Virus record (IMG/VR): IMGVR_UViG_3300045988_171958
Location: 32,001-96,000 of that record
From: a virus
DNA length: 64,000 bases
Reading direction: 5' to 3' (one strand)
The stretch's first letter is position 1. Each line of letters begins with the position of its first letter. Under the pieces are notes generated by a model, which saw only the letters and a program-made list of their open reading frames with translations, was not told the origin of the DNA and did no database searches. The position numbers and the translations under genes were made by a program. Shown piece after piece: positions 4,167-50,794 of this stretch.

Positions 4167-4709
4167 TTACATGGTACCTCCGTTATTACTGTTTCCATTG
4201 TCTTTATTGTCATTATTTTTGTTTTCTTCAGAATTACCTGATTTAGCTTCAGCCTTCATAGATTTGATAATATCCGCAATTTTTGGACCTTTTGTCTTGG
4301 ACCAACCAGATGATTGATATCCATAAGGTTTCAAATTATCTAACAAGAAACTGAAATCAGATGAAAATTCTGTTATCAAAACTTTACAAGTTGAATCAAG
4401 TTGCTTAGTTAATGTGGCAACCTTTGCTTGTGTATTAGCAAGACATCCAGCCACAGTAGTTGGTATCAAGAAACCTCCATCAAAGAAACTGTCTTTTGCT
4501 TCTTCTTGACCAGACATTACTTTAATCCATCCTTTAACTGTTGTTTCAAAAGCTGGCCATTGCTTGAATGTACCGGCATCACCCTTTACTGATTTATCTT
4601 TATTATCTTGCTGATCTTGGTCGTTATTCTGATCATTATTCTGACCATTATTTTGATTGTTATTTTGCTGATCTTCTGCTTCCAAAATCAAATCACTTAA
4701 GCTTTTCAT
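4167..4709 (-). CDS. hypothetical protein with N/Q/D-rich low-complexity termini
   Basis: 180-aa ORF. The N-terminus is QQNNNQNNGQNNDQNNDQDQQDNKDK and the C-terminus is NKNNDNKDNGNSNNGG, flanking a ~110-aa ordered-looking core. Confidence 0.7.
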   Translation of the reverse strand: MKSLSDLILEAEDQQNNNQNNGQNNDQNNDQDQQDNKDKSVKGDAGTFKQWPAFETTVKGWIKVMSGQEEAKDSFFDGGFLIPTTVAGCLANTQAKVATLTKQLDSTCKVLITEFSSDFSFLLDNLKPYGYQSSGWSKTKGPKIADIIKSMKAEAKSGNSEENKNNDNKDNGNSNNGGTM

Positions 4710-4772: not shown

Positions 4773-6416
4773 TTAGAATTTCTTACCTCCTCGTATTGCT
4801 GAATTCCTCATCTGCTCTGCAATCATCTTTTCAGCAAGTTGTAATGCTTCATCATCTTCGGCATTCTCATAAATTCTTGCGCAAGTAATAAATGATCTAC
4901 AACTAACTTCAATAGGTTTTCCTTCTTCAACTAATTTTTCAAGATAATTCATAGCTTTAGCTTTTGATGACATTGAAAGATGATTAGATTCAATATTTGG
5001 CATAATACCACGAATTATTTCAAGCAAATCCTTAGTAGAGAAATCAAGTGATTGTGTAAATGCTCTATTTCGTAATGCTGTATCAATTTGTCCAACACTA
5101 TAGTTTGTAATGACAATCATACCGCATTTATTGTAATGTGATTTAGGGACTGGAACACCTTCATCATCTTTAAGTTCACCGGAAACTTTATATGATACAA
5201 GACGACCTTCATCATCTGCTGTTGAATCAAGGGCCGCCTTAAGAATATTGATACAATCTTCTGGTGCTTTTGGACCTACCAATGAATCAGCATCATCAAC
5301 TAAAACAATATCACCCTTACCTTTATTGTTATAAAGTGTTAAATAAAGCTGTCTAGGTGTACATTTACCTTTTACAGTATTATCGGCAGTCATAGTATAT
5401 CCTGCTGCCTTCAATTGTTGCTTTACACGGAAAGTCTTACCGATACCAGGAGCACCACAAAGAATTACAGCAGGTTGAATTCCTTTAATAACCATCTTTA
5501 TATATAACTGCATTTCCTTAAATGCTGTCTTAGGATCTGACTTAGCAGTTTCAATCTTCTTTTCTGCTTCTGCAGCACCGGCAATAGTAGATGATACTGA
5601 AACATTTTTCTTTACAGAGCATTCAAGATCATCTAAAGATGTTGCACCACCTTTAATAGCATTCAATATCTGACGATATTCTTTATAAAGAGCTTTACCA
5701 AGATCTGGGTCAGTATTTGTTTTCATTTGGGCATATACTTCTTTCTTACGATCTTCAAGTTCTGTTTCATTGATCCACTGATAAGATTCTCCAATCTTCT
5801 TATATTTATGACCAAGATTTAAATGGTACTTTTCAATAACCTTATCTTCAGAAATTCCTTCATAAATATGATATTTCTGGGCACCAAAATACATGTCACA
5901 AGAAATACATTCATTCTTGGTATCATATACTTTACGTCCAAGCTTTACTGCTTCTTCTGATGAAATATCAAACTTACCACTATTTATTACATTTGCAATT
6001 ACTGGAATATAATAAACAATACTAGCACCCATCATTTTGATTTCCAGTTGTGCTTTAATTGGTTTATTGTCATCACCACCAAAAAATAATGAAGCAGTAT
6101 TTGTTTGATTGAAGAAAGCAACTGAATAAGGTACCATAGATTGGCCGCTCTTCAAGAAGTTGATACTGAATGATGATTTTGGAATGCTTCCACCCTTATC
6201 TGATACAATATACATTACAGAGCTGCAATCATTACCATCTACTTTCAAATCAGATACACCTAAAGACCATACATGTCCTATGGTAATTTCTTTCTTCAAT
6301 ATGTTGAGAATTGTCTTCTTTGCTTTATTATAATCTTTCTCTTTAAATGCCTCATTCATCCATTGAGAAGATTCTTCTAATAATGTTTTCTTATTTACAA
6401 AATCTAAAAATGACAT
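4773..6416 (-). CDS. AAA+ ATPase with an unassigned ~300-aa N-terminal domain
   Basis: Walker A is ILCGAPGIGKTF and Walker B is IVLVDDADS. A sensor-like ITNY..ALRNRAF segment follows. Confidence 0.8.
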   Translation of the reverse strand: MSFLDFVNKKTLLEESSQWMNEAFKEKDYNKAKKTILNILKKEITIGHVWSLGVSDLKVDGNDCSSVMYIVSDKGGSIPKSSFSINFLKSGQSMVPYSVAFFNQTNTASLFFGGDDNKPIKAQLEIKMMGASIVYYIPVIANVINSGKFDISSEEAVKLGRKVYDTKNECISCDMYFGAQKYHIYEGISEDKVIEKYHLNLGHKYKKIGESYQWINETELEDRKKEVYAQMKTNTDPDLGKALYKEYRQILNAIKGGATSLDDLECSVKKNVSVSSTIAGAAEAEKKIETAKSDPKTAFKEMQLYIKMVIKGIQPAVILCGAPGIGKTFRVKQQLKAAGYTMTADNTVKGKCTPRQLYLTLYNNKGKGDIVLVDDADSLVGPKAPEDCINILKAALDSTADDEGRLVSYKVSGELKDDEGVPVPKSHYNKCGMIVITNYSVGQIDTALRNRAFTQSLDFSTKDLLEIIRGIMPNIESNHLSMSSKAKAMNYLEKLVEEGKPIEVSCRSFITCARIYENAEDDEALQLAEKMIAEQMRNSAIRGGKKF

Positions 6417-31125: not shown

Positions 31126-32232
31126 ATGGCAAACGAAAATTTGAATTCAGTTGAAAATGACATTCTTGGTTTTGACCCTAGTCAGTTGACAGTTTATCAG
31201 GAGCAACCACAGCAAACTTCAGGTGGAAATCCTAACATTTATCACCCAAAGCCAGCTCTTTCTAAGGCAGAAGATGGAGTTTACCGTTCTCAGATCAAGG
31301 TTATCTATAATCCATGGGATCTTCGAAACAGTATTCTTGAACAGCAATCTTATGCTTTGCAGGATAGCAATGGTTTCTTCTCTGTTGTAAGTTCATTGAC
31401 AAACAATGACAAGAATTGCCCAGTATTTAAGGCATGGAAGCAGTGTCATTTCTCTAAGGATGAAAAGATGCAGAAGCAGGCTTTGACCAAGGACAAGGGT
31501 GGACGTGGTTTGTTTGACAAGCGTTATGCACGTTATGCACTTATCCAGGTGATTGAAGACAATAACCAGCCGGATCTTGTAGGAAAGTACATGTTCTGGA
31601 AGCTTCCTAAGGCTATTTGGGAGACAATCAACGCTAAGATGGCTCCAAGCCCTGAGTCTAAGAAAGCTAGTATTCCTGTTATGGATTTCTTGTTTGGTCG
31701 TGCTATTGACCTTGAGGTAACACCAGGTCCAGATGATCCTAAAGCACCTGAGCGTAAGACTCGTGAGATTAGTTACAATACTTCAGAACTTACTGATGAT
31801 GTAGTTAGTTGTACTAATCCTGATGGAAGTCCATTGCTTGATGATGATCAGCAAGCTGTACTTGACCAGTACGTTGAGGAAATGACAAAGAAGGTTTGGA
31901 AACAGAAGGATCCAGATGTTCGTGCTACAGCTCTTGCAGAAATCAATGCCGAAGAGAACACAAAGAAACTTCGTGAGTTGTATCATGGTGTAATTGAGAA
32001 GATCAAGAGCTTCTGTCCTAATTTGATTGATGAGCTTGGTTACCATGAGTGGTCACCTGAAGTAACAGCTCGTGTCAATGCATGGATTAATGTAGTTCTT
32101 GCTGGTAATGATCCAACAAATCCATTGCCATCAGCAACATCAGCAGCATCAACAACTACTGCCCCTGCTGCTACTCCTTCAGATACAACAGAATCAACAC
32201 CAACAGCTGGTTCTGATGATCTTCCATTCTAG
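31126..32232 (+). CDS. gp32-like single-stranded DNA-binding protein
   Basis: LVGKYMFWKLPKAIWETINAKMAP resembles T4 gp32 [24 protein letters not shown]. The Ser/Thr/Ala-rich acidic C-terminal tail ending SDDLPF resembles the gp32 C-terminal tail. Confidence 0.75.
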   Translation: MANENLNSVENDILGFDPSQLTVYQEQPQQTSGGNPNIYHPKPALSKAEDGVYRSQIKVIYNPWDLRNSILEQQSYALQDSNGFFSVVSSLTNNDKNCPVFKAWKQCHFSKDEKMQKQALTKDKGGRGLFDKRYARYALIQVIEDNNQPDLVGKYMFWKLPKAIWETINAKMAPSPESKKASIPVMDFLFGRAIDLEVTPGPDDPKAPERKTREISYNTSELTDDVVSCTNPDGSPLLDDDQQAVLDQYVEEMTKKVWKQKDPDVRATALAEINAEENTKKLRELYHGVIEKIKSFCPNLIDELGYHEWSPEVTARVNAWINVVLAGNDPTNPLPSATSAASTTTAPAATPSDTTESTPTAGSDDLPF

Positions 32233-33657: not shown

Positions 33658-34446
33658 ATGAAAAAGATAAAATATTTGATAGTAGGTTCAGCTTTTCTTG
33701 GTGGACTATCTGGAACATTACCACCCATGTTCATTAATGCTAGTCCTAATATTAATTCATTAGTAAAAGAAAAAGAAGATAGTACTCATCTTTGGAAGAA
33801 CATTAAGCTATATAGTGTAGTAAGAGATACATTGACTATAGAAGAAAGAGTACAACGTATTGAGGAAATGATGACCATTGACATCAATACAATGGCAAAG
33901 TCTTCTGATGTACATGAACATCATACTAATACTTATGAACATATTTATACATATAAGAATGCAAGTATAAGTAAGAAAGGAAAAGAGTTCATCAAGAAAT
34001 ATGAATCTTGTGTCCTTACTGCTTACAAGCTTAAAGGTGAAAAGAGATATACTATAGGTTATGGTCATGTAATCTATGAAAATGATATCCCACATAAGAT
34101 AAGTCAAGAATATGCTGATAAGCTATTTGATAAGGATATGGATAAGTTCAATGTTCATGTAAGAGAATTGCTTTCTGAACTTGACCATAGATTTATCTAT
34201 ACTCAATCATTTATTGATGGGTTGACATCATTGACATATAATTGTGGACCAGATGGTGTAAGAAAGACAAGGTTCTGGAAACGAATGAAGGCATGTCGAT
34301 ATGATAAGGAAACAAAAGCTATCAATAAGAAAGACTTGATTTATGCCATAGAAGCAGTAAAGACAGCCAATATTTCTAGAATATATTATTCTGGTCACAA
34401 GAACAGAAGAAAAGCAGAACACAATAAAATGACAGAAGAAGTATAA
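33658..34446 (+). CDS. GH24 (T4 e-type) lysozyme with an N-terminal signal-anchor (SAR-like endolysin)
   Basis: FIKKYESCVLTAYKLKGEKRYTIGYGH matches the catalytic Glu ... TIGxGH motif. EYADKLFDKDMDKF resembles T4L DEAEKLFNQDVDAA. The N-terminus MKKIKYLIVGSAFLGGLSGTL is hydrophobic and Gly-rich. Confidence 0.8.
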   Translation: MKKIKYLIVGSAFLGGLSGTLPPMFINASPNINSLVKEKEDSTHLWKNIKLYSVVRDTLTIEERVQRIEEMMTIDINTMAKSSDVHEHHTNTYEHIYTYKNASISKKGKEFIKKYESCVLTAYKLKGEKRYTIGYGHVIYENDIPHKISQEYADKLFDKDMDKFNVHVRELLSELDHRFIYTQSFIDGLTSLTYNCGPDGVRKTRFWKRMKACRYDKETKAINKKDLIYAIEAVKTANISRIYYSGHKNRRKAEHNKMTEEV

Positions 34447-36323: not shown

Positions 36324-36557
36324 ATGAAATTAGTACAAGATTGTAAGATTGGAACAATAATGGTTCCGTGTATTGTATATGCTGTTATATGCTATATTTC
36401 TTGGAATTTTTTTGCAACAAACTTGGTTGAAGAAAAAATGGGTATGTGCATATTTGCAACATCATTTTATGTGATAATATCAATGGTGTTTACAGTATTT
36501 GCCTATGTAGTTGTAGTAGTAATTCAAGAAGAGTTTAAAAATTTAAATAAAGATTAA
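36324..36557 (+). CDS. small membrane protein
   Basis: First ATG (MKLVQDC..), two TM helices, and a stop that overlaps the next ATG. Confidence 0.55.
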   Translation: MKLVQDCKIGTIMVPCIVYAVICYISWNFFATNLVEEKMGMCIFATSFYVIISMVFTVFAYVVVVVIQEEFKNLNKD

Positions 36558-37636
36558 TGATGGAGAATGTTTTGAAACTGACAAAAGAAAATGCAAATAA
36601 AGTATTGATTGTATATCATAAAGAAGATAATGATGGTGTGTTTTCTGCGGCATTGATGTATCATTGGATTGTTGATTGCATATCTAAACATTTACGAACT
36701 AAGAAGGAAAATGTTACTTTACTTGGTGCAGATTACAATATGCTAGATACATTAGCTAAAGATAGAAAGAATGATATGTGTCCTTATAATTGGATAAACA
36801 AATTTGGACATGTTTATATGCTTGATGTTTCATTCAATAATTGGAAAGTAATGAAGTTCTTGCATGATGCATATAGTTGTCGTTTAAGCTTTAGTTGGTT
36901 TGACCATCATGGTCCAGCATTAGCATTAGCAAAGCAACATGGATATGATGATACACCTGGATATAGGGCAACAACTACATCAACAATTGGATTAGTTTAT
37001 GAACATTTGTTTGATGTGCTTAGAATCAACCAGAATAAGGGTAATATGCCACAGTTGCTTCAGTATCTTGCTGGTTGGGACAGTTTCCATCCTAAGCAGT
37101 ATTGTCTTGGATTAGATGATTGTTATGGGGTCAATCTTGTAATCAATAGAGACTTTGAACTTGATTTTGATAAAGTATATGATTGTGTAAAGCATATTAT
37201 GTACGATGATGGTTCTGAATCTGATTATGGAAGAAACTTCATTAGTGAAACCGTACTTGATGCAGAAAACATTGTTGATTATGAAAACTATAAGAATAAG
37301 CAGTTAGTAAACAACTATGGTGATTTTGATTGGAAGTTCATCATCAATGGAAAGGAACGTAAGGCAGTTGCATTGTTCTGTCAAGGTCCATCATCAAGCA
37401 GAATGTTCGAATCAGTAGCAGATAAAGTAGATCATGCTATTGTCTTCAAACATTTGCCTAATGGAAAATGGTCTGGTTCTGTATATAATGTAAGACAAGA
37501 TGATGATAGAGAATACAATCTTGGAAGATGGATTAAGAGTTTAGTAAAGACTGCAGGTGGACATCCAGGTGCTGCTGGATTTACTATCAGTAATTCTAAA
37601 TTCAATAAGTGGAATAAGAATAAGACAGTAAGTTAA
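36557..37636 (+). CDS. DHH/DHHA1-family phosphoesterase (NrnA / RecJ-core-like)
   Basis: YHKEDNDGVFSAAL matches DHH motif I-II (DxD), WFDHHGP matches the DHH motif, and GGHPGAAGF matches the DHHA1 GGGH-type motif. Confidence 0.75.
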   Translation: MMENVLKLTKENANKVLIVYHKEDNDGVFSAALMYHWIVDCISKHLRTKKENVTLLGADYNMLDTLAKDRKNDMCPYNWINKFGHVYMLDVSFNNWKVMKFLHDAYSCRLSFSWFDHHGPALALAKQHGYDDTPGYRATTTSTIGLVYEHLFDVLRINQNKGNMPQLLQYLAGWDSFHPKQYCLGLDDCYGVNLVINRDFELDFDKVYDCVKHIMYDDGSESDYGRNFISETVLDAENIVDYENYKNKQLVNNYGDFDWKFIINGKERKAVALFCQGPSSSRMFESVADKVDHAIVFKHLPNGKWSGSVYNVRQDDDREYNLGRWIKSLVKTAGGHPGAAGFTISNSKFNKWNKNKTVS

Positions 37637-37879: not shown

Positions 37880-39334
37880 ATGAAAGTAAAGAAAAGAGAT
37901 GGTAAAGTCCAAGGCTTTGATCTTAACAAGCCAATTCATGCACTTGAAAAGGTGTATAAGAATGGAGTGAAGAAAGAAGTTCCTGATGGACTTATTAGTA
38001 AGTTTACAGAATCAATAAGAGCTTGGTTAGAAACCATGAAAGAAGATGTAGTTGATATTGAGACTGTACAAGATTTCTTGAGAGATTTCCTCATGTCAGT
38101 AGGAGAGAATGAAGCCGCAGAGCAATTCATCATTTACCGAGAAGAGAGATCTAGGTATCGAGAATCTAATACAAAGCTTGCTAAGAATATTGCTACAAAA
38201 CTTTATGCCAAGAATGTAGTTAACCAGAATGCTAATCTTGATGAAAACAGTTTTAGTGGTCGTATTGGTGAAGCTGGAGCGGTTGTTTGTAAAGATTTTG
38301 CTTTGAAAAACAGTATGTCGAAGATGGCAAGAAAGAATCATGAAGGAAACATGATTTATCAGCATGATCTTGACAAATTTGTATCGGGTATGCACAATTG
38401 TTTGACAGATCCAGTTGATATTCTTCTTGAACATGGCATTACATTGAAGCAGTGTGACATTCGTCCTGCTAATTCATTGAATACTGCATTCCAATTGATA
38501 GCTGTCAATTTCCAAGTACAATCACTTGAACAGTTTGGGGGTATTTCTGCATCACATCTTGATTGGACAATGGTACCATATTTCCGTAAGAGTTTCTTTA
38601 AGCATTACAACAATTGGTGTGATGGAATTCCATTGATGAAGTGGGCTAAACCTAACATTGATTCTAAATCTATCAAACATGTTAGTGTTGATGATAGAAT
38701 TTATACTGGTGTTGGATTGTTGAAACCATTGAAGAAAATGATATGGAAGAAAGCTTGGAATTCTACATTGAAGGAATTGAGACAAGCTACTGAAGCAATG
38801 AGTCATAATCTCAATAGCTTACAATCACGTAGTGGTGCTCAGTTGCCATTTTCTAGCATCAATTATGGTACATGTACTTTAAAGGAAGGTCGTGAAATCA
38901 TCAGAGCATTAATTAGTATGACATTGGAAGGTACTGGTAAGTATCATCGTACTGCTATATTCCCATGTTGCATATTCCAATACAGTAAGGAAATTCATGG
39001 TTCTAAAAAGAATCCTGGTCCTAACTATGATTTGTTCAGATTAGCATTGAAATCTACAACACAACGTGATTATCCTAATTATTGTAATGTTGATTGGAGT
39101 ACTAACTGGAAAGGTAATATATTTGATAGGGAGCAAAAGAATCGTGCATTGAAAGATTTGCTCAATTTCTCTAATTCAACATACTGTGCATTTGCCAAAT
39201 GGCTATCAGAACACCATGATTATGAAGATTATTTGTCATTGGAAGGTTATTATGATTGTATTGAAGATCATTGGGAAATTAAAGTAAAACCAGCAGAGAA
39301 ATTCACTAGATATGAAGTGATGAGCACGATGGGT
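37880..39334 (+). CDS. nrdD: anaerobic (class III) ribonucleotide reductase NrdD, exon 1
   Basis: N-terminal ATP-cone-like MKVKKRDGKVQGFDLNKPIHALEKV. The frame stays open for 485 codons to GGT at 39332-39334 (..EVMSTMG). The following 21 codons in the ORF track read into the intron. Confidence 0.85.
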
Positions 39335-39626
39335 AAGCGTAATACTACAGCCCATCTAAAACCTCTCGAACCATGCTTAATGGGTGTGGCAGCATAAGAA
39401 AATAAATAAGCTGCTGCTAACGGTTAGGTCCATTTATAATAGATGGATGAGATCCGTGCTAAATTGATAAATTTATTTATCATAAAGGTGTATCGACTAT
39501 CCCTGATGAGTGTAAGGGAGTAGAATCTGAGATAAGCACAGATTCGGAGCGTGAGGCCTCTGTTCATTTATGATAAATGAACTTAGGAACATATAGTCAG
39601 TCCTGTTAGTAATAACAGATAAGATG
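39335..39626 (+). other. group I self-splicing intron (292 nt, no internal ORF)
   Basis: P1 pairs exon GATGGGT (39328-39334) with intron GCCCATC (39350-39356), with a U.G wobble at the splice site. P10 pairs 3' exon TGTAG (39627-39631) with CTACA (39345-39349), immediately 5' of the guide. The intron ends in G (39626), contains several GC-rich hairpins, and splicing restores the frame. Confidence 0.8.
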
Positions 39627-40670
39627 TGTAGAACATATAATGGTTATGATATCAATTGTGATTCAAATTATTTCTTTGACATATTTAGAAAGATAGCAGA
39701 AACTGGTAAAGTACAAGACAATTGGATGTTGTCTGCAAACCAGAAAGATGGTCGTGGAAACATTTGTCCTGTTACTATCATCATGCCTACTTTAGCTATG
39801 ATGGCAAAAGAATCTGGTAGTAAAGATGTAGTAGAGACATTCATGAAGCTGCTTGATAAGAAGATTCATGAAGCAAGAGAAATGCTTCTTGAAAGATTTA
39901 CTTTGATTTGCAGTCAGAATTCTAAGTCTGCTCCATTTATGTGGACAAACAATACAATGGTAGGATATATCCCTGAAGAAGGCCCTGTATCTGCTATGAA
40001 GCATGGTACATTAGCTATCGGACAAATTGGATTAGCAGAAACATTGCAGATATTGATTGGATGTGACCAGACAGAAGCTCAAGGTCTTGAACTTGGAAAG
40101 AGAATTGAAAAGCTATTCAATGATAGATGTACAGAATTCAAGAAAAATGATAAGTTGAATTTTGGAGTATACCTGACTCCAGGAGAATCCCTTTGTAAGA
40201 CAGCAATGACAAAATTCAGAGCACAATATGGTAATGATGTTAAAGGTGTTACTGATAATGACAATAAATTCTTTACAAATTCAACTCATGTACCTGTATA
40301 CAGAGATATTGATTGTTTCAAGAAAATTGATATTGAAAGTGAATTAGATAAGTTCAGTAATGCAGGATGCATCACTTATGTTGAAATGCCAAGTTCAGCA
40401 ACTAACAATATAGATGCTTGTGAAGAATTAGTGGTTTATGCAATGGATAAGGATCTTCCGTATTTCAGTTTGCATTTCCCATTGGATTATTGTAGAGATT
40501 GCCATAGTAAAGGTGACTTCAATGGAACATGCCCACATTGTGGAAGTCATAACATAGAGGAACTAAGGATGGTCACAGGCTACCTTAGTACTGATGTTTC
40601 TAATATGAATGAAGGTAAACAAGATGAAGTTTCTAAACGATTAAAACATGTTGAACAAAATTTAATTTAA
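39627..40670 (+). CDS. nrdD: anaerobic ribonucleotide reductase NrdD, exon 2
   Basis: Begins CRTYNGYD.., so the junction reads STMG-CRTY. The C-terminal Zn-ribbon is CRDCHSKGDFNGTCPHCGS, and the glycyl-radical motif is RMVTGYL (compare RVxGY). Confidence 0.85.
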   Translation, partial: CRTYNGYDINCDSNYFFDIFRKIAETGKVQDNWMLSANQKDGRGNICPVTIIMPTLAMMAKESGSKDVVETFMKLLDKKIHEAREMLLERFTLICSQNSKSAPFMWTNNTMVGYIPEEGPVSAMKHGTLAIGQIGLAETLQILIGCDQTEAQGLELGKRIEKLFNDRCTEFKKNDKLNFGVYLTPGESLCKTAMTKFRAQYGNDVKGVTDNDNKFFTNSTHVPVYRDIDCFKKIDIESELDKFSNAGCITYVEMPSSATNNIDACEELVVYAMDKDLPYFSLHFPLDYCRDCHSKGDFNGTCPHCGSHNIEELRMVTGYLSTDVSNMNEGKQDEVSKRLKHVEQNLI

Positions 40671-40717: not shown

Positions 40718-41275
40718 ATGGAAACAAAAGATTTACACGTGATAGCAGTTACTGGTCCAGATATCAACAATGGTCCTGGTTTTAGAGTAACTATATGGGT
40801 ATCTGGATGTACACATGCATGTCCTGGTTGCCAGAATAAGCATACTTGGAAATATGGTCAAGGTCATAAGTTAGATGATATGGTACCATATACGAACATC
40901 ACTTATAAAGACAAGATATTGAATTTGATAGGTGATGAACATATTGATGGTGTAACAATTTCCGGAGGTGACCCATTAGACCAATCTGTACAAGCATTAG
41001 AAGAACTTGCTAAGTTTCTTTCTAATATAAAGAAGAGATATCCAGAAAAGAGTATCTGGCTCTATACAGGATATTTCATTGAAGATTTGAAGAATTATCC
41101 TCATAAAGAAGTAATTAAGAATTGTGATGTTATAATTGATGGTCCTTATGTAAAGGAAAAACGAAACATAACAATACCATTCAGAGGAAGTACTAATCAG
41201 AGAATTATCGATGTACAGAAATCATTTAAAGAGAATAAGATATGTACTATAGATGATTCAGAATTTGTAAAGTAA
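40718..41275 (+). CDS. nrdG: anaerobic RNR activating enzyme NrdG (radical SAM)
   Basis: GPGFRVTIWVSGCTHACPGCQN carries the CxxxCxxC cluster motif, ISGGDPL is present, and the gene lies directly downstream of nrdD. Confidence 0.85.
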   Translation: METKDLHVIAVTGPDINNGPGFRVTIWVSGCTHACPGCQNKHTWKYGQGHKLDDMVPYTNITYKDKILNLIGDEHIDGVTISGGDPLDQSVQALEELAKFLSNIKKRYPEKSIWLYTGYFIEDLKNYPHKEVIKNCDVIIDGPYVKEKRNITIPFRGSTNQRIIDVQKSFKENKICTIDDSEFVK

Positions 41276-46617: not shown

Positions 46618-48573
46618 ATGAGTAAAGTTTTAGGCTTGGATCTCGGTACTGGTATGTCATGTGTAGCAGTAATTGAGGCAGGTAAACCAGTTGTGGTAGT
46701 AAATGAAGAAGGAACAAGAACAACACCATCAGTAGTACAGATTACAAAAGATGAAGTGAAGATTGGTAATGCAGCAAAGCGTGCAATGGTAACAAATCCA
46801 AAGAACACTATCAGTTTTGTAAAGCGTTTGATGGGTGCTGATTTTAATGATGAGAATGTAAAGAAGATGCAGAAGCTTGCAACTTATGATATTGTAAATA
46901 AGTCTGGTAAGCCTTATGTTAAGATCGATGACAAAGAATATTCTCCTGAACAGATTTCATCTATGATTGTTGGCAAGATGAAAAAAGTTGCACAAGACTA
47001 TGTTGGTGAAGAAATTAAAGATGCAGTAATTACGGTACCAGCTTGGTTTGGTGATGCTGCCCGTACAGCAACTAAGACAGCAGGTGAGCTTGCTGGATTG
47101 AATGTACTTCGTGTAATTAATGAGCCAACATCAGCGGCATTGGCTGCTAACTTGATGGAAGACAAGAAAGACAAGACTGTTGTAGTAGTGGATTCTGGTA
47201 CTGGTACAGTCGATGTTTCTGTTCTTGAGTTGTCTGATGGTATGGCTGAAGTACTTGCATCAAATGGTGATGTATATCTTGGAGGTAAAGATTATGATGA
47301 TGCTATTGTAAAGTGGGTAGTTGATGAATTCAAGAAGTCAGATGATGTTGATTTGGCAAAGGACAATATGGCTTATGCTCGTGTAGTAGAATCTGCAGAA
47401 AAAGCAAAGATTGAATTGTCAAGTTCAACACAGACAGAGATTAATCTCCCATATATTTCTATGAAAGATGGTGCACCATTGAATCTTGCTATGACACTTT
47501 CTCGTGCTAAGTTTGAATCTCTTGTAAAGAATTTGAATGATCGTACTGTTGAAAAGGCAAAGATTGCTGTAGAGAAGGCTGGTAAGAAATATGATGATAT
47601 TGATTGTATCTTGCTTGTAGGTGGTACAACTCGTATTCCATCATTACAAGAGGCATTGAAGAAGGAATTCAATAAGCCATTGAATCAATCTGTAAATCCA
47701 GATGAAGCAGTTGCATTGGGTGCTGCTAAGCAAGCTGATATTCTTGCTGGTAATTCTACTGGTGATTTGTTGCTTCTTGATGTTACTCCATTGTCATTGG
47801 GTATCGAAACTAAGGGAGATATGATGGCACCTATTGTTGAAGCAAATACAACAATTCCATGTCAAAAGAAGCAAGTATTCACCACATCTATTGATAACCA
47901 ACCTATGGTTGAAGTGAATGTATTGCAAGGTGAACGTAAGATTGCTTCTGGCAATAAGTCTATTGGTAGATTCAGATTGGATGGAATTCCTATGGCAAAG
48001 GCCGGTGTACCACAGATTGAAGTTTGCTTTGATATTGATGCAAATGGTATTGTTACAGTTACTGCTAAAGATCTTGGTACTAATAAAGAACAGCATATTA
48101 CAATCAGTAACAACACACTTACTGATGAGGAAATCAAAGCAATCAAGGAAGATGCTGAGAAGTTCAAGGAAGCTGATGAAAAGAAGACACAAGAAACCAA
48201 TGACATCAATGATGCAGAACGTTATATGTTCAATACAAAAGAGATGATTGCCAATGAAGACTTTGTCAAGGCTACATCAGATGAAGATAGAGCTAAAGCA
48301 CAAGAAAAACTTGATGCATTAGAATCAATTGTTGTATTGAAGGACAAAGACCATGATAAGATCATGGAAGCTAAGAAAGAGTTAGAAGAAGTTTGGAACC
48401 CTATAGTTGAGAAATTCTATGCCGATAAGCAAAAGAGTCAAGATTGTACTAATAAGACAGAGACACAGGAAGGAAATGCAAAGGAAGAGAATGCGTCAAA
48501 TCCTGACAATGATAAGAAGGAAGAAAAATCAGATGATGTAAAAGTAGAAGATGCAGTAGTTGAAGATGCATAA
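46618..48573 (+). CDS. dnaK: Hsp70 chaperone DnaK
   Basis: Full-length 651 aa. Motifs include LGLDLGTGMSCVAV, ..AVITVPAWFGDAAR..AGLNVLRVINEPTSAALA.., LLVGGTTRIPS.. and DEAVALGAA, plus a substrate-binding domain and an acidic C-terminal tail. Confidence 0.95.
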   Translation: MSKVLGLDLGTGMSCVAVIEAGKPVVVVNEEGTRTTPSVVQITKDEVKIGNAAKRAMVTNPKNTISFVKRLMGADFNDENVKKMQKLATYDIVNKSGKPYVKIDDKEYSPEQISSMIVGKMKKVAQDYVGEEIKDAVITVPAWFGDAARTATKTAGELAGLNVLRVINEPTSAALAANLMEDKKDKTVVVVDSGTGTVDVSVLELSDGMAEVLASNGDVYLGGKDYDDAIVKWVVDEFKKSDDVDLAKDNMAYARVVESAEKAKIELSSSTQTEINLPYISMKDGAPLNLAMTLSRAKFESLVKNLNDRTVEKAKIAVEKAGKKYDDIDCILLVGGTTRIPSLQEALKKEFNKPLNQSVNPDEAVALGAAKQADILAGNSTGDLLLLDVTPLSLGIETKGDMMAPIVEANTTIPCQKKQVFTTSIDNQPMVEVNVLQGERKIASGNKSIGRFRLDGIPMAKAGVPQIEVCFDIDANGIVTVTAKDLGTNKEQHITISNNTLTDEEIKAIKEDAEKFKEADEKKTQETNDINDAERYMFNTKEMIANEDFVKATSDEDRAKAQEKLDALESIVVLKDKDHDKIMEAKKELEEVWNPIVEKFYADKQKSQDCTNKTETQEGNAKEENASNPDNDKKEEKSDDVKVEDAVVEDA

Positions 48574-50706: not shown

Positions 50707-50775
50707 GGGCCATTACGGATTTGACAATCGATACTAAACTTCGGTTGGACGTGAGTTCGAATCTCACATGGTCCA
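50707..50775 (+). tRNA. non-canonical tRNA-like gene (short D region, 9-nt anticodon loop; identity unresolved)
   Basis: Acceptor stem GGGCCAT / ATGGTCC has 7 bp with one G.U pair. The T arm is canonical: GTGAG-TTCGAAT-CTCAC. The central stem ATCGA/TCGGT closes the loop TACTAAACT. Only 69 nt before the discriminator, and no encoded CCA. Confidence 0.55.
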
Positions 50776-50794
50776 CTAAACTTGAAAGAAGACT

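Follow-up and report, generated by a model that had tools for sequence, protein, structure and literature searches.

A probable subgroup IA group I intron without an open reading frame splits a phage nrdD gene just before its catalytic cysteine codon

Introduction

Self-splicing introns of phages are well known to insert where nucleotide-metabolism genes are most conserved, in their catalytic motifs; because such target sequences cannot drift, the insertion site remains available. The closest described relative of the element treated here is the sunY intron of phage T4 (source of I-TevII), which interrupts nrdD and is annotated as group IA in the T4 record. Here we analyze a 64,000-nucleotide (nt) stretch of viral DNA (IMG/VR record IMGVR_UViG_3300045988_171958, positions 32,001 to 96,000; hereafter the window), in which an nrdD gene is interrupted by a 292-nt insert devoid of any open reading frame (ORF). 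We conclude, with a confidence of about 93%, that this insert belongs to subgroup IA of the group I introns, is kin of the T4 sunY/nrdD intron, and separates the Gly codon from the Cys codon in the MGCR motif.

Interrupted nrdD genes have been encountered before: Felix O1-like phages possess a 'split nrdD interrupted by a homing endonuclease' (PMC4837284), split nrdD genes are mentioned in general terms (PMC3653736), and RNA sequencing has lent support to the splicing of introns that interrupt nrdD in jumbo phages of the gut (PMC12880540). Our literature search found no paper that names the MG↓CR site (arrows denote insertion points throughout) and no description of the two-hairpin split of helix P3 that is reported below.

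Results

Both exons of the interrupted gene have lengths divisible by three, and joining them yields a predicted NrdD of 832 amino acids that reads ...EVMSTMG↓CRTYNG..., with no frameshift or stop in any of its 832 codons and with an intact nrdG adjacent. Its assignment to the class III ribonucleotide reductases is based on NRDD matches to both exons (Table 1), the finger-loop Cys, the neighboring nrdG, and the presence in exon 2 of zinc-ribbon cysteines and the glycyl-radical motif RMVTGYL; the protein also matches PDB entries 8p23 and 1h78. When the spliced protein was used to search viral contigs, seven loci were found, on contigs of 148-283 kb, a size that suggests a large phage of animal-gut origin. 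In five of these relatives (L003-L006 and L008, with 96-98% protein identity), the 832 codons of nrdD are uninterrupted and read ...ATGGGT↓TG... exactly at the window's interruption, and another, L009, has a 295-nt insert at the same position that is 91% identical to that of the window. The insert is variably present among close relatives, and the predicted splice product (mRNA junction ...AGCACGATGGGT↓TGTAGAACATA, i.e., ATGGGT↓TGTAGA) corresponds at the junction to the protein encoded by the intron-less alleles, as the in-frame joining proposed in a first-pass annotation of this DNA had anticipated. Because these relatives are unbroken there, it is they, and not the position of a stop codon, that fix the true junction: The first-pass annotation had the reading frame break at 39334 and resume at 39627, which is borne out as a junction, although the open frame of exon 1 actually runs past the junction for another 20 codons and ends within the insert, at the stop at 39397. 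Mechanical ORF calls report the two halves as 505 and 348 amino acids. An assembly artefact is excluded because independent contigs have the same insert.

When T4 nrdD is spliced from its record, MGCR occupies residues 288-291, including Cys290, and Gly580 lies within TCGYLG; in Aurelius et al., Cys290 of MGCR is given as the finger loop's tip. Because Cys487 of the window's NrdD aligns with Cys290, the intron is placed by this alignment between the second and third residues of the motif (Gly↓Cys), immediately before the predicted catalytic Cys codon, in line with an earlier proposal that it splits the finger-loop motif bearing the thiyl-radical Cys.

Table 1. Coordinates of the intron, its structural elements, the host gene and neighboring genes (window positions; pairing and covariation refer to the alignment of 16 homologues described in the text; hpA and hpB are the two hairpins inserted in P3)
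Feature	Position	Strand	Remarks
Group I intron	39335-39626	+	292 nt, no ORF; supported by Rfam RF00028, relatives with and without insert, covariation and fold z-score
P1 exon strand, GAUGGGU	39328-39334	+	its final U is in the wobble pair (U.G) at the 5' splice site; 99% paired
P10 guide, CUACA	39345-39349	+	pairs with exon 2 UGUAG, 39627-39631
P1 internal guide, GCCCAUC	39350-39356	+	7 bp with GAUGGGU
P3 5' strand, main part, CCUCUC	39362-39367	+	pairs with GUGAGG 39551-39556, one U-U mismatch
First inserted hairpin (hpA), CCAU-GCUUA-AUGG	39371-39383	+	3/4 pairs compensatory, 100% paired
Second inserted hairpin (hpB), GGCAGC...GCUGCU	39388-39415	+	4/4 tested pairs compensatory; found in unconstrained fold
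GC adjoining J3/4	39416-39417	+	could extend P3 with GC 39549-39550; complementary but invariant in 16/16, no covariation signal possible
P4 (ACGG/CCGU) around P5 (GUCCAUUU/AGAUGGAU), with J4/5 and J5/4	39420-39457	+	100% paired
P6 (GC/GU) and P6a (GAUAAAU/AUUUAUC, 39466-39481)	39458-39489	+	compensatory CG/UA/GC
P7 5' strand, GACUA (guanosine-binding helix)	39495-39499	+	pairs with UAGUC 39594-39598; pseudoknot with P3
P7.1 hairpin, UCCCU-GAUGAGUGUA-AGGGA	39500-39519	+	invariant through retrieval
P7.2 hairpin, GAAUCUG-AGAUAAGCA-CAGAUUC	39523-39545	+	5/7 pairs compensatory
P3 3' strand, GC+GUGAGG	39549-39556	+	pairs with CCUCUC and GC
P8: base CCU/AGG, internal loop, 9-bp distal stem	39557-39587	+	3/4 tested pairs compensatory
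J8/7 AACAUA and P7 3' strand UAGUC	39588-39598	+	family-wide GAA(S)AUAUAGUC; Rfam aligns it to its AUAUAGUC core
P9, CUGUUA-GUAA-UAACAG	39603-39618	+	GNRA-type loop; 5/6 pairs compensatory
Terminal G (omega-G)	39626	+	G invariant in 16/16 aligned homologues
nrdD exon 1	37880-39334	+	485 codons, ends ...STMG; Pfam ATP-cone 4.7e-13, NRDD N-terminal part 6.9e-48
nrdD exon 2	39627-40670	+	347 codons, starts at the catalytic Cys codon (CRTYNG...); Pfam NRDD C-terminal part 2.3e-70
nrdG	40718-41275	+	radical-SAM activating enzyme directly 3' of nrdD; Pfam Fer4_12 4.1e-41, Radical_SAM 6.7e-6
gp32-like single-strand DNA binding protein	31126-32232		phage-like neighbor
Lysozyme	33658-34446		phage-like neighbor
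DHH phosphoesterase	36557-37636		phage-like neighbor

The insert has the anatomy of a group I intron. In a narrow scan of 561 nt, the Rfam model Intron_gpI (RF00028) matched positions 39368-39619 over its full length (30.6 bits, E = 5.8e-6) and was the only sensible match. We aligned 16 ORF-less homologues (66-91% identical; 408 columns, including 9 nt of exon on each side), drew the structure by hand from these sequences, and then counted pairs on the same alignment: standard pairs occupy 99.2% of 1038 positions, and in 28 of the 65 pairs both sides have changed. None of 500 shuffles reached any of the five measures, and sliding the 3' partners by 1-3 columns reduced pairing to 35-41%. Compensatory changes support P3 (three of six pairs changed on both sides, UA/CG, UA/CG and UG/GC, with 97.9% of positions paired), P4 (GC to UA), P5 (UA to AU and CG to UA), P6, P8 and P9, and P7 is complementary but invariant. 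The elements follow the canonical order, with a P4-P6 stack, a P3-P8 stack, and P7 pseudoknotted with P3. An unconstrained minimum-energy fold recovers ten helices (P3, hpA, hpB, P4, P5, P6a, P7.1, P7.2, P8 and P9), its energy lying at a z-score of -4.1 relative to shuffles. P7 and P7.1 are invariant in the alignment because their motif was used to retrieve the homologues; P7.1 is, however, compensatory in relatives from cultured phages, where CCCU/AGGG becomes GCUG/CAGC (Escherichia phage PD06) or ACCG/CGGU (Felixounavirus JLBYU28). The RNA fold is conserved under selection.

The splice-site helices vary in step with the exons. The U.G wobble of P1 is invariant in all 16 homologues, and the exon base at position -7 covaries with the guide (GC in 7 homologues, AU in 4, CG in 2, and UA and GU in 1 each), the outermost pair of P1 following the wobble base of the preceding codon. 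Similarly, the P10 guide of the window, CUACA for UGUAG, is replaced in the homologue L052 by CGACA for an exon 2 that begins UGUCG. These findings uphold the P1, P10 and terminal G of the first-pass annotation, and the three hairpins that it named turn out to be real helices, namely hpB, P6a and the distal part of P8. Its description of the insert as richer in GC than its surroundings holds only mildly, the intron having 37.7% G+C, compared with 34-35% for the exons and 30.8% for the window. As it had also stated, the intron lacks an endonuclease gene: no ORF of at least 60 amino acids lies within 39335-39626 on either strand. In ORF-bearing relatives, the loop of P6 is where the endonuclease gene is found. 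According to two degenerate motif searches, the intron family is represented by a single copy in the window.

Subgroup IA is reportedly defined (Michel and Westhof, 1990) by P7.1 and P7.2 between the 5' strand of P7 and the 3' strand of P3. The window intron has both hairpins, in the manner of T4 sunY (IA2), and a block spanning P7 and P7.1, CGACTATCCCTGATGA(A/G)TGTAAGGGAGTAG (in the window, CGACTATCCCTGATGAGTGTAAGGGAGTAG), agrees with T4 sunY at 29 of 30 bases (96.7%), which supports the subgroup assignment, and the group I intron that the first-pass annotation had noted in T4 nrdD has a homologous core. The two introns share the host gene, a P3 that directly follows P1 with no P2, and a GC(C/U)CAU guide with a U.G wobble. 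However, the T4 intron measures 1033 nt, contains a GIY-YIG ORF downstream of its core, and has a long extension after P9 that the window intron lacks, whereas the window intron has two extra hairpins. Rather than running straight into J3/4, its P3 is split on the 5' side by these two conserved hairpins (39371-39383 and 39388-39415), the first of which is flanked by an invariant GAA before and GUGU after.

The insertion sites also differ. The T4 intron follows nucleotide 538, within codon 180 (AYEY↓EVNTLF), about 110 codons upstream of Cys290, and we therefore reject the notion that the window intron occupies the same site as that of T4, a comparison that the first-pass annotation had left to be made. 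The two are linked by family members at the window's own site. The intron of PD06, at MG↓CR, is 84% identical to the T4 core and identical to it in the guide region GCTCATGTAAAATCTGCCTAAA; it follows ATGGGT at the Cys codon, and the T4 intron follows ATGAGT at codon 180. The T4 site mimics the P1 target, presenting AUGAGU in place of the AUGGGU at MG↓CR to the same guide, GCUCAUG. This similarity suggests that the T4 intron moved between two sites that fit one guide, and T4 sunY might be an offshoot of the MG↓CR lineage that shifted about 110 codons upstream.

To judge by its distribution, the window intron is another copy of a very common phage intron family. Scanning viral contigs with a 26-nt version of the T4-like motif yielded more than 119 stretches, of which 123 were classified, and 106 of these have at least one junction at the MG↓CR site of nrdD. 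Both junctions lie there in 83 (27 ORF-less copies of 238-304 nt and 56 copies of 520-1139 nt), and in another 23 one junction was seen with the other off the contig. In most of the 56 long copies, the P6 loop contains a long ORF, located after the 5' side of P6 and before P7, and all four copies that were sampled encode endonucleases of the GIY-YIG or HNH/I-HmuI-like kind. The host proteins are diverse, reading STMG↓CRTANG, SPMG↓CRAFL, PCMG↓CRSFL or AAMG↓CRTRV at the site. Genome assemblies of bacteria and archaea gave 15 hits, all of them gut metagenome-assembled contigs with the intron at MG↓CR. The metagenomic relatives that share the type of the window intron (for example, L009, L011, L056 and L076) are 66-91% identical to it over their whole length, with the same site and the same module, GAA-hairpin-GGUGU-hairpin-GCUAA, and they vary in the lengths of the peripheral stems hpB, P5, P6a and P8.

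Cultured phages contain introns at this site as well. A protein query spanning the junction was unbroken in 2653 of 2747 GenBank phage records, and it was this query alone that detected related same-site introns in cultured coliphages of the phi92-like, Felix O1-like and rV5-like groups. The phi92-like PD06 has a 290-nt ORF-less intron (L250, 2211-2500) at VTSMG↓CRSFL and JLBYU28 has an intron of 316 nt (L251, approximately 1186-1501) at ISPMG↓CRAFL; in both, the annotation simply lists two nrdD genes. At least 80% of the PD06 intron is covered by 55 records, some with a homing endonuclease gene, such that ORF-less and endonuclease-bearing versions both exist among cultured phages. Introns of PD06, JLBYU28 and the rV5-like phages resemble that of the window in their ATGGGT↓TGTAGA insertion, in the logic of their P1 and P10 guides, and in their IA core, but they belong to the type of T4 sunY, in that P3 is not interrupted and P9 is followed by an extension, and are distant from the window intron outside P7-P9. 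Such same-site introns are commonly described only as a split nrdD with a homing endonuclease in between (PMC4837284). A blastn search of GenBank phages with the window intron found none of these same-site introns, its sole match being a 56-nt core segment of Clostridium phage CS266P3, and a metagenomic relative as query returned core matches only. The CS266P3 intron (L129, approximately 1800-2640) combines the GAA-hairpin-GGUGU-hairpin-GCUAACGG module with an I-HmuI-like HNH gene in a different gene, the downstream exon of which begins ...DIDVDFETDRR, showing that a split P3 also occurs outside nrdD.

The intron-less alleles differ from the intron-bearing ones in the codons that follow the junction. 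Four of the uninterrupted relatives (L003, L005, L006 and L008) read TGC CGC ACA TAC at their positions 4456-4467, equivalent to 39627-39638 of the window, where intron-bearing alleles read TGT AGA ACA TAT/C, so that the target reads ATGGGT↓TGTAGAACA or, where recoded, ATGGGT↓TGCCGCACA. The CGC is the sole CGC arginine codon of the whole 833-codon gene, and the four synonymous differences are concentrated at the start of exon 2, in its first 11 nt, whereas none of these alleles has any in the 55-65 nt that precede the junction. The recoding may represent escape from a homing endonuclease, disruption of P10, or a trace of co-conversion left by homing. TGTAGA at the start of exon 2 was rejected as a marker of intron-bearing alleles: ATGGGTTGTAGAAC is present in 39 intron-less viral nrdD genes.

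Other inserts occur at the radical sites of related nrdD genes. Thomasclavelia phages TR-TP1 and TR-TP2, whose NrdD is related to that of the window, have the same STMGCRT motif split by an intron that contains an HNH gene. This intron (L001, 3648-4524 in TR-TP2, and the same in TR-TP1) is 877 nt long, lies 4 nt upstream (AT↓GGGT), and has a different core, its Rfam match of 27.9 bits extending over the P9 end only; on account of the offset and the core, it was rejected as a same-site homologue, and judging from these sequences it looks like an independent colonization of the motif. A further relative, L007 (80% protein identity), is without an intron at MG↓CR; it has instead a 279-nt insert (5404-5682) placed directly behind the codon for the glycyl-radical Gly (RVTG↓YLSTD), where the exon ends in U and the insert in G. 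The fold has a z-score of -3.5, Rfam gave no match at E <= 1, and about 190 nt are approximately 70% identical to sequences that, in phages including Staphylococcus phage 6ec, lie beside genes for a homing endonuclease or terminase. This insert probably represents another intron, unrelated to that at MG↓CR, at the other radical residue.

Discussion

The anatomy of the insert, together with the behavior of its T4 relative, would imply the following course of splicing for this copy. The nrdD and nrdG genes would be transcribed together with the intron, and the RNA would fold into the P3-P8 and P4-P6 domains around P7. The guide GCCCAUC would hold the terminus of exon 1 within P1, the U.G wobble lying at the splice site, and a free guanosine bound in P7 would attack after U39334. 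The adjacent guide CUACA would then align exon 2 through P10, the terminal G39626 would replace the free guanosine, and ligation of the exons would produce an mRNA for the 832-amino-acid NrdD with its catalytic Cys restored.

Several points weigh against reading the insert as an active group I intron. Its RF00028 score lies below the gathering score of 50, and whole-window Rfam scans, at the gathering threshold or at E <= 0.01, do not list it; the gathering score marks where curators drew the line for one broad model and has no biological standing as a criterion, and the TR-TP2 intron likewise falls short of it. The alignment used to derive the structure was also the one used to assess it, which favors the structure in the control with slid partners, and P7 and P7.1 are beyond the reach of covariation there, the homologues having been retrieved with that motif. 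P3 contains a U-U mismatch, common to L009, the fourth tested pair of P8 is C-U, and two hairpins inside the 5' strand of P3 are not a textbook layout. Finally, the exact junction, the anatomy, the selected RNA fold, the family and the site are shown here, and the splicing chemistry and the activity of this copy are inferred.

Two other explanations of the locus have to be set against a spliced intron. The insert could descend from a group I intron that no longer splices, which would make nrdD a pseudogene here: the want of an endonuclease ORF would suit a late stage in the usual cycle of gain, decay and loss of homing introns, and the two mismatches and the sub-threshold Rfam score also speak for a decayed intron. 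But both exons are intact over 832 codons, as is nrdG, and all core helices, J8/7, the omega-G, the U.G pair, P1 and P10 are present. At 9% divergence from the L009 intron, the changes in the aligned helices are compensatory (at two pairs of P7.2 and one of P9) and the distal part of P8 (GUUCAUUUA/UAAAUGAAC in the window) has been replaced, a pattern that indicates continuing selection on the fold. With 27 ORF-less copies of the same architecture persisting in diverse phages, we regard a decayed intron as very improbable.

Slightly less credible still is that the halves of NrdD are translated separately and assemble as proteins, as reported for NrdA of Aeromonas phage Aeh1, with the insert serving as a spacer or dead remnant. 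Split ribonucleotide reductase genes that work without splicing have been reported (PMC3653736), the exon 1 frame does reach a stop within the insert, and the last three intron bases (39624-39626) are an AUG in frame with exon 2, from which ORF finders call a 348-amino-acid product, M-CRTYNG. This AUG, however, is preceded by no Shine-Dalgarno-like sequence and is not conserved, most homologues ending in ...ACG before exon 2, and the helices of the insert are kept by compensatory changes for which a spacer would not be selected.

If, as we hold, the insert is a group I intron, it cannot home alone because it has no endonuclease gene. It is best read as a copy that lost its endonuclease, derived from a mobile family with GIY-YIG or HNH genes in the P6 loop, and it could spread if a co-infecting relative supplied the enzyme.

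The locus bears on annotation as well as on intron biology. The two nrdD ORFs should be annotated as one 832-amino-acid gene with an intron, and the same correction applies to many GenBank phages in which the halves are listed as separate genes. Moreover, the Rfam general model scores these introns below threshold, and the family could therefore serve to improve covariance models. The intron is a further example of settlement in a conserved catalytic motif, and the occupation of one site in very diverse nrdD genes, with and without endonuclease, alongside recoded empty alleles, provides a natural series for the cycle of gain, decay and loss of homing introns.

What is new here may lie in particular features: the two-hairpin module GAA-hairpin-GGUGU-hairpin, which splits the 5' strand of P3 and might be a new core variant; the recoded target (TGC CGC) of close intron-less relatives, which might serve to avoid cutting; and the near-identity that the T4 intron, along with its guide, shows to introns located elsewhere in nrdD. 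We advance only tentatively, as the less probable view, that these introns form a very successful, site-specific IA lineage, uncharacterized as such, whose target in hundreds of phage lineages is the nrdD codon for the thiyl-radical Cys, at its first base.

Additional features of the window

Positions 50707-50778 form an element that resembles a tRNA, in which both the acceptor stem and the T arm are good. A narrow Rfam scan scored it as tRNA with 28.5 bits against a gathering score of 29, the whole-window scan listed it as transfer-messenger RNA (tmRNA) with 45.9 bits against 47, and ARAGORN called no tRNA or tmRNA over the whole window. A full-length homologue of Hsp70/DnaK is encoded at 46618-48573 (Pfam HSP70, E = 4.9e-204) in a genome that is otherwise large-phage-like.

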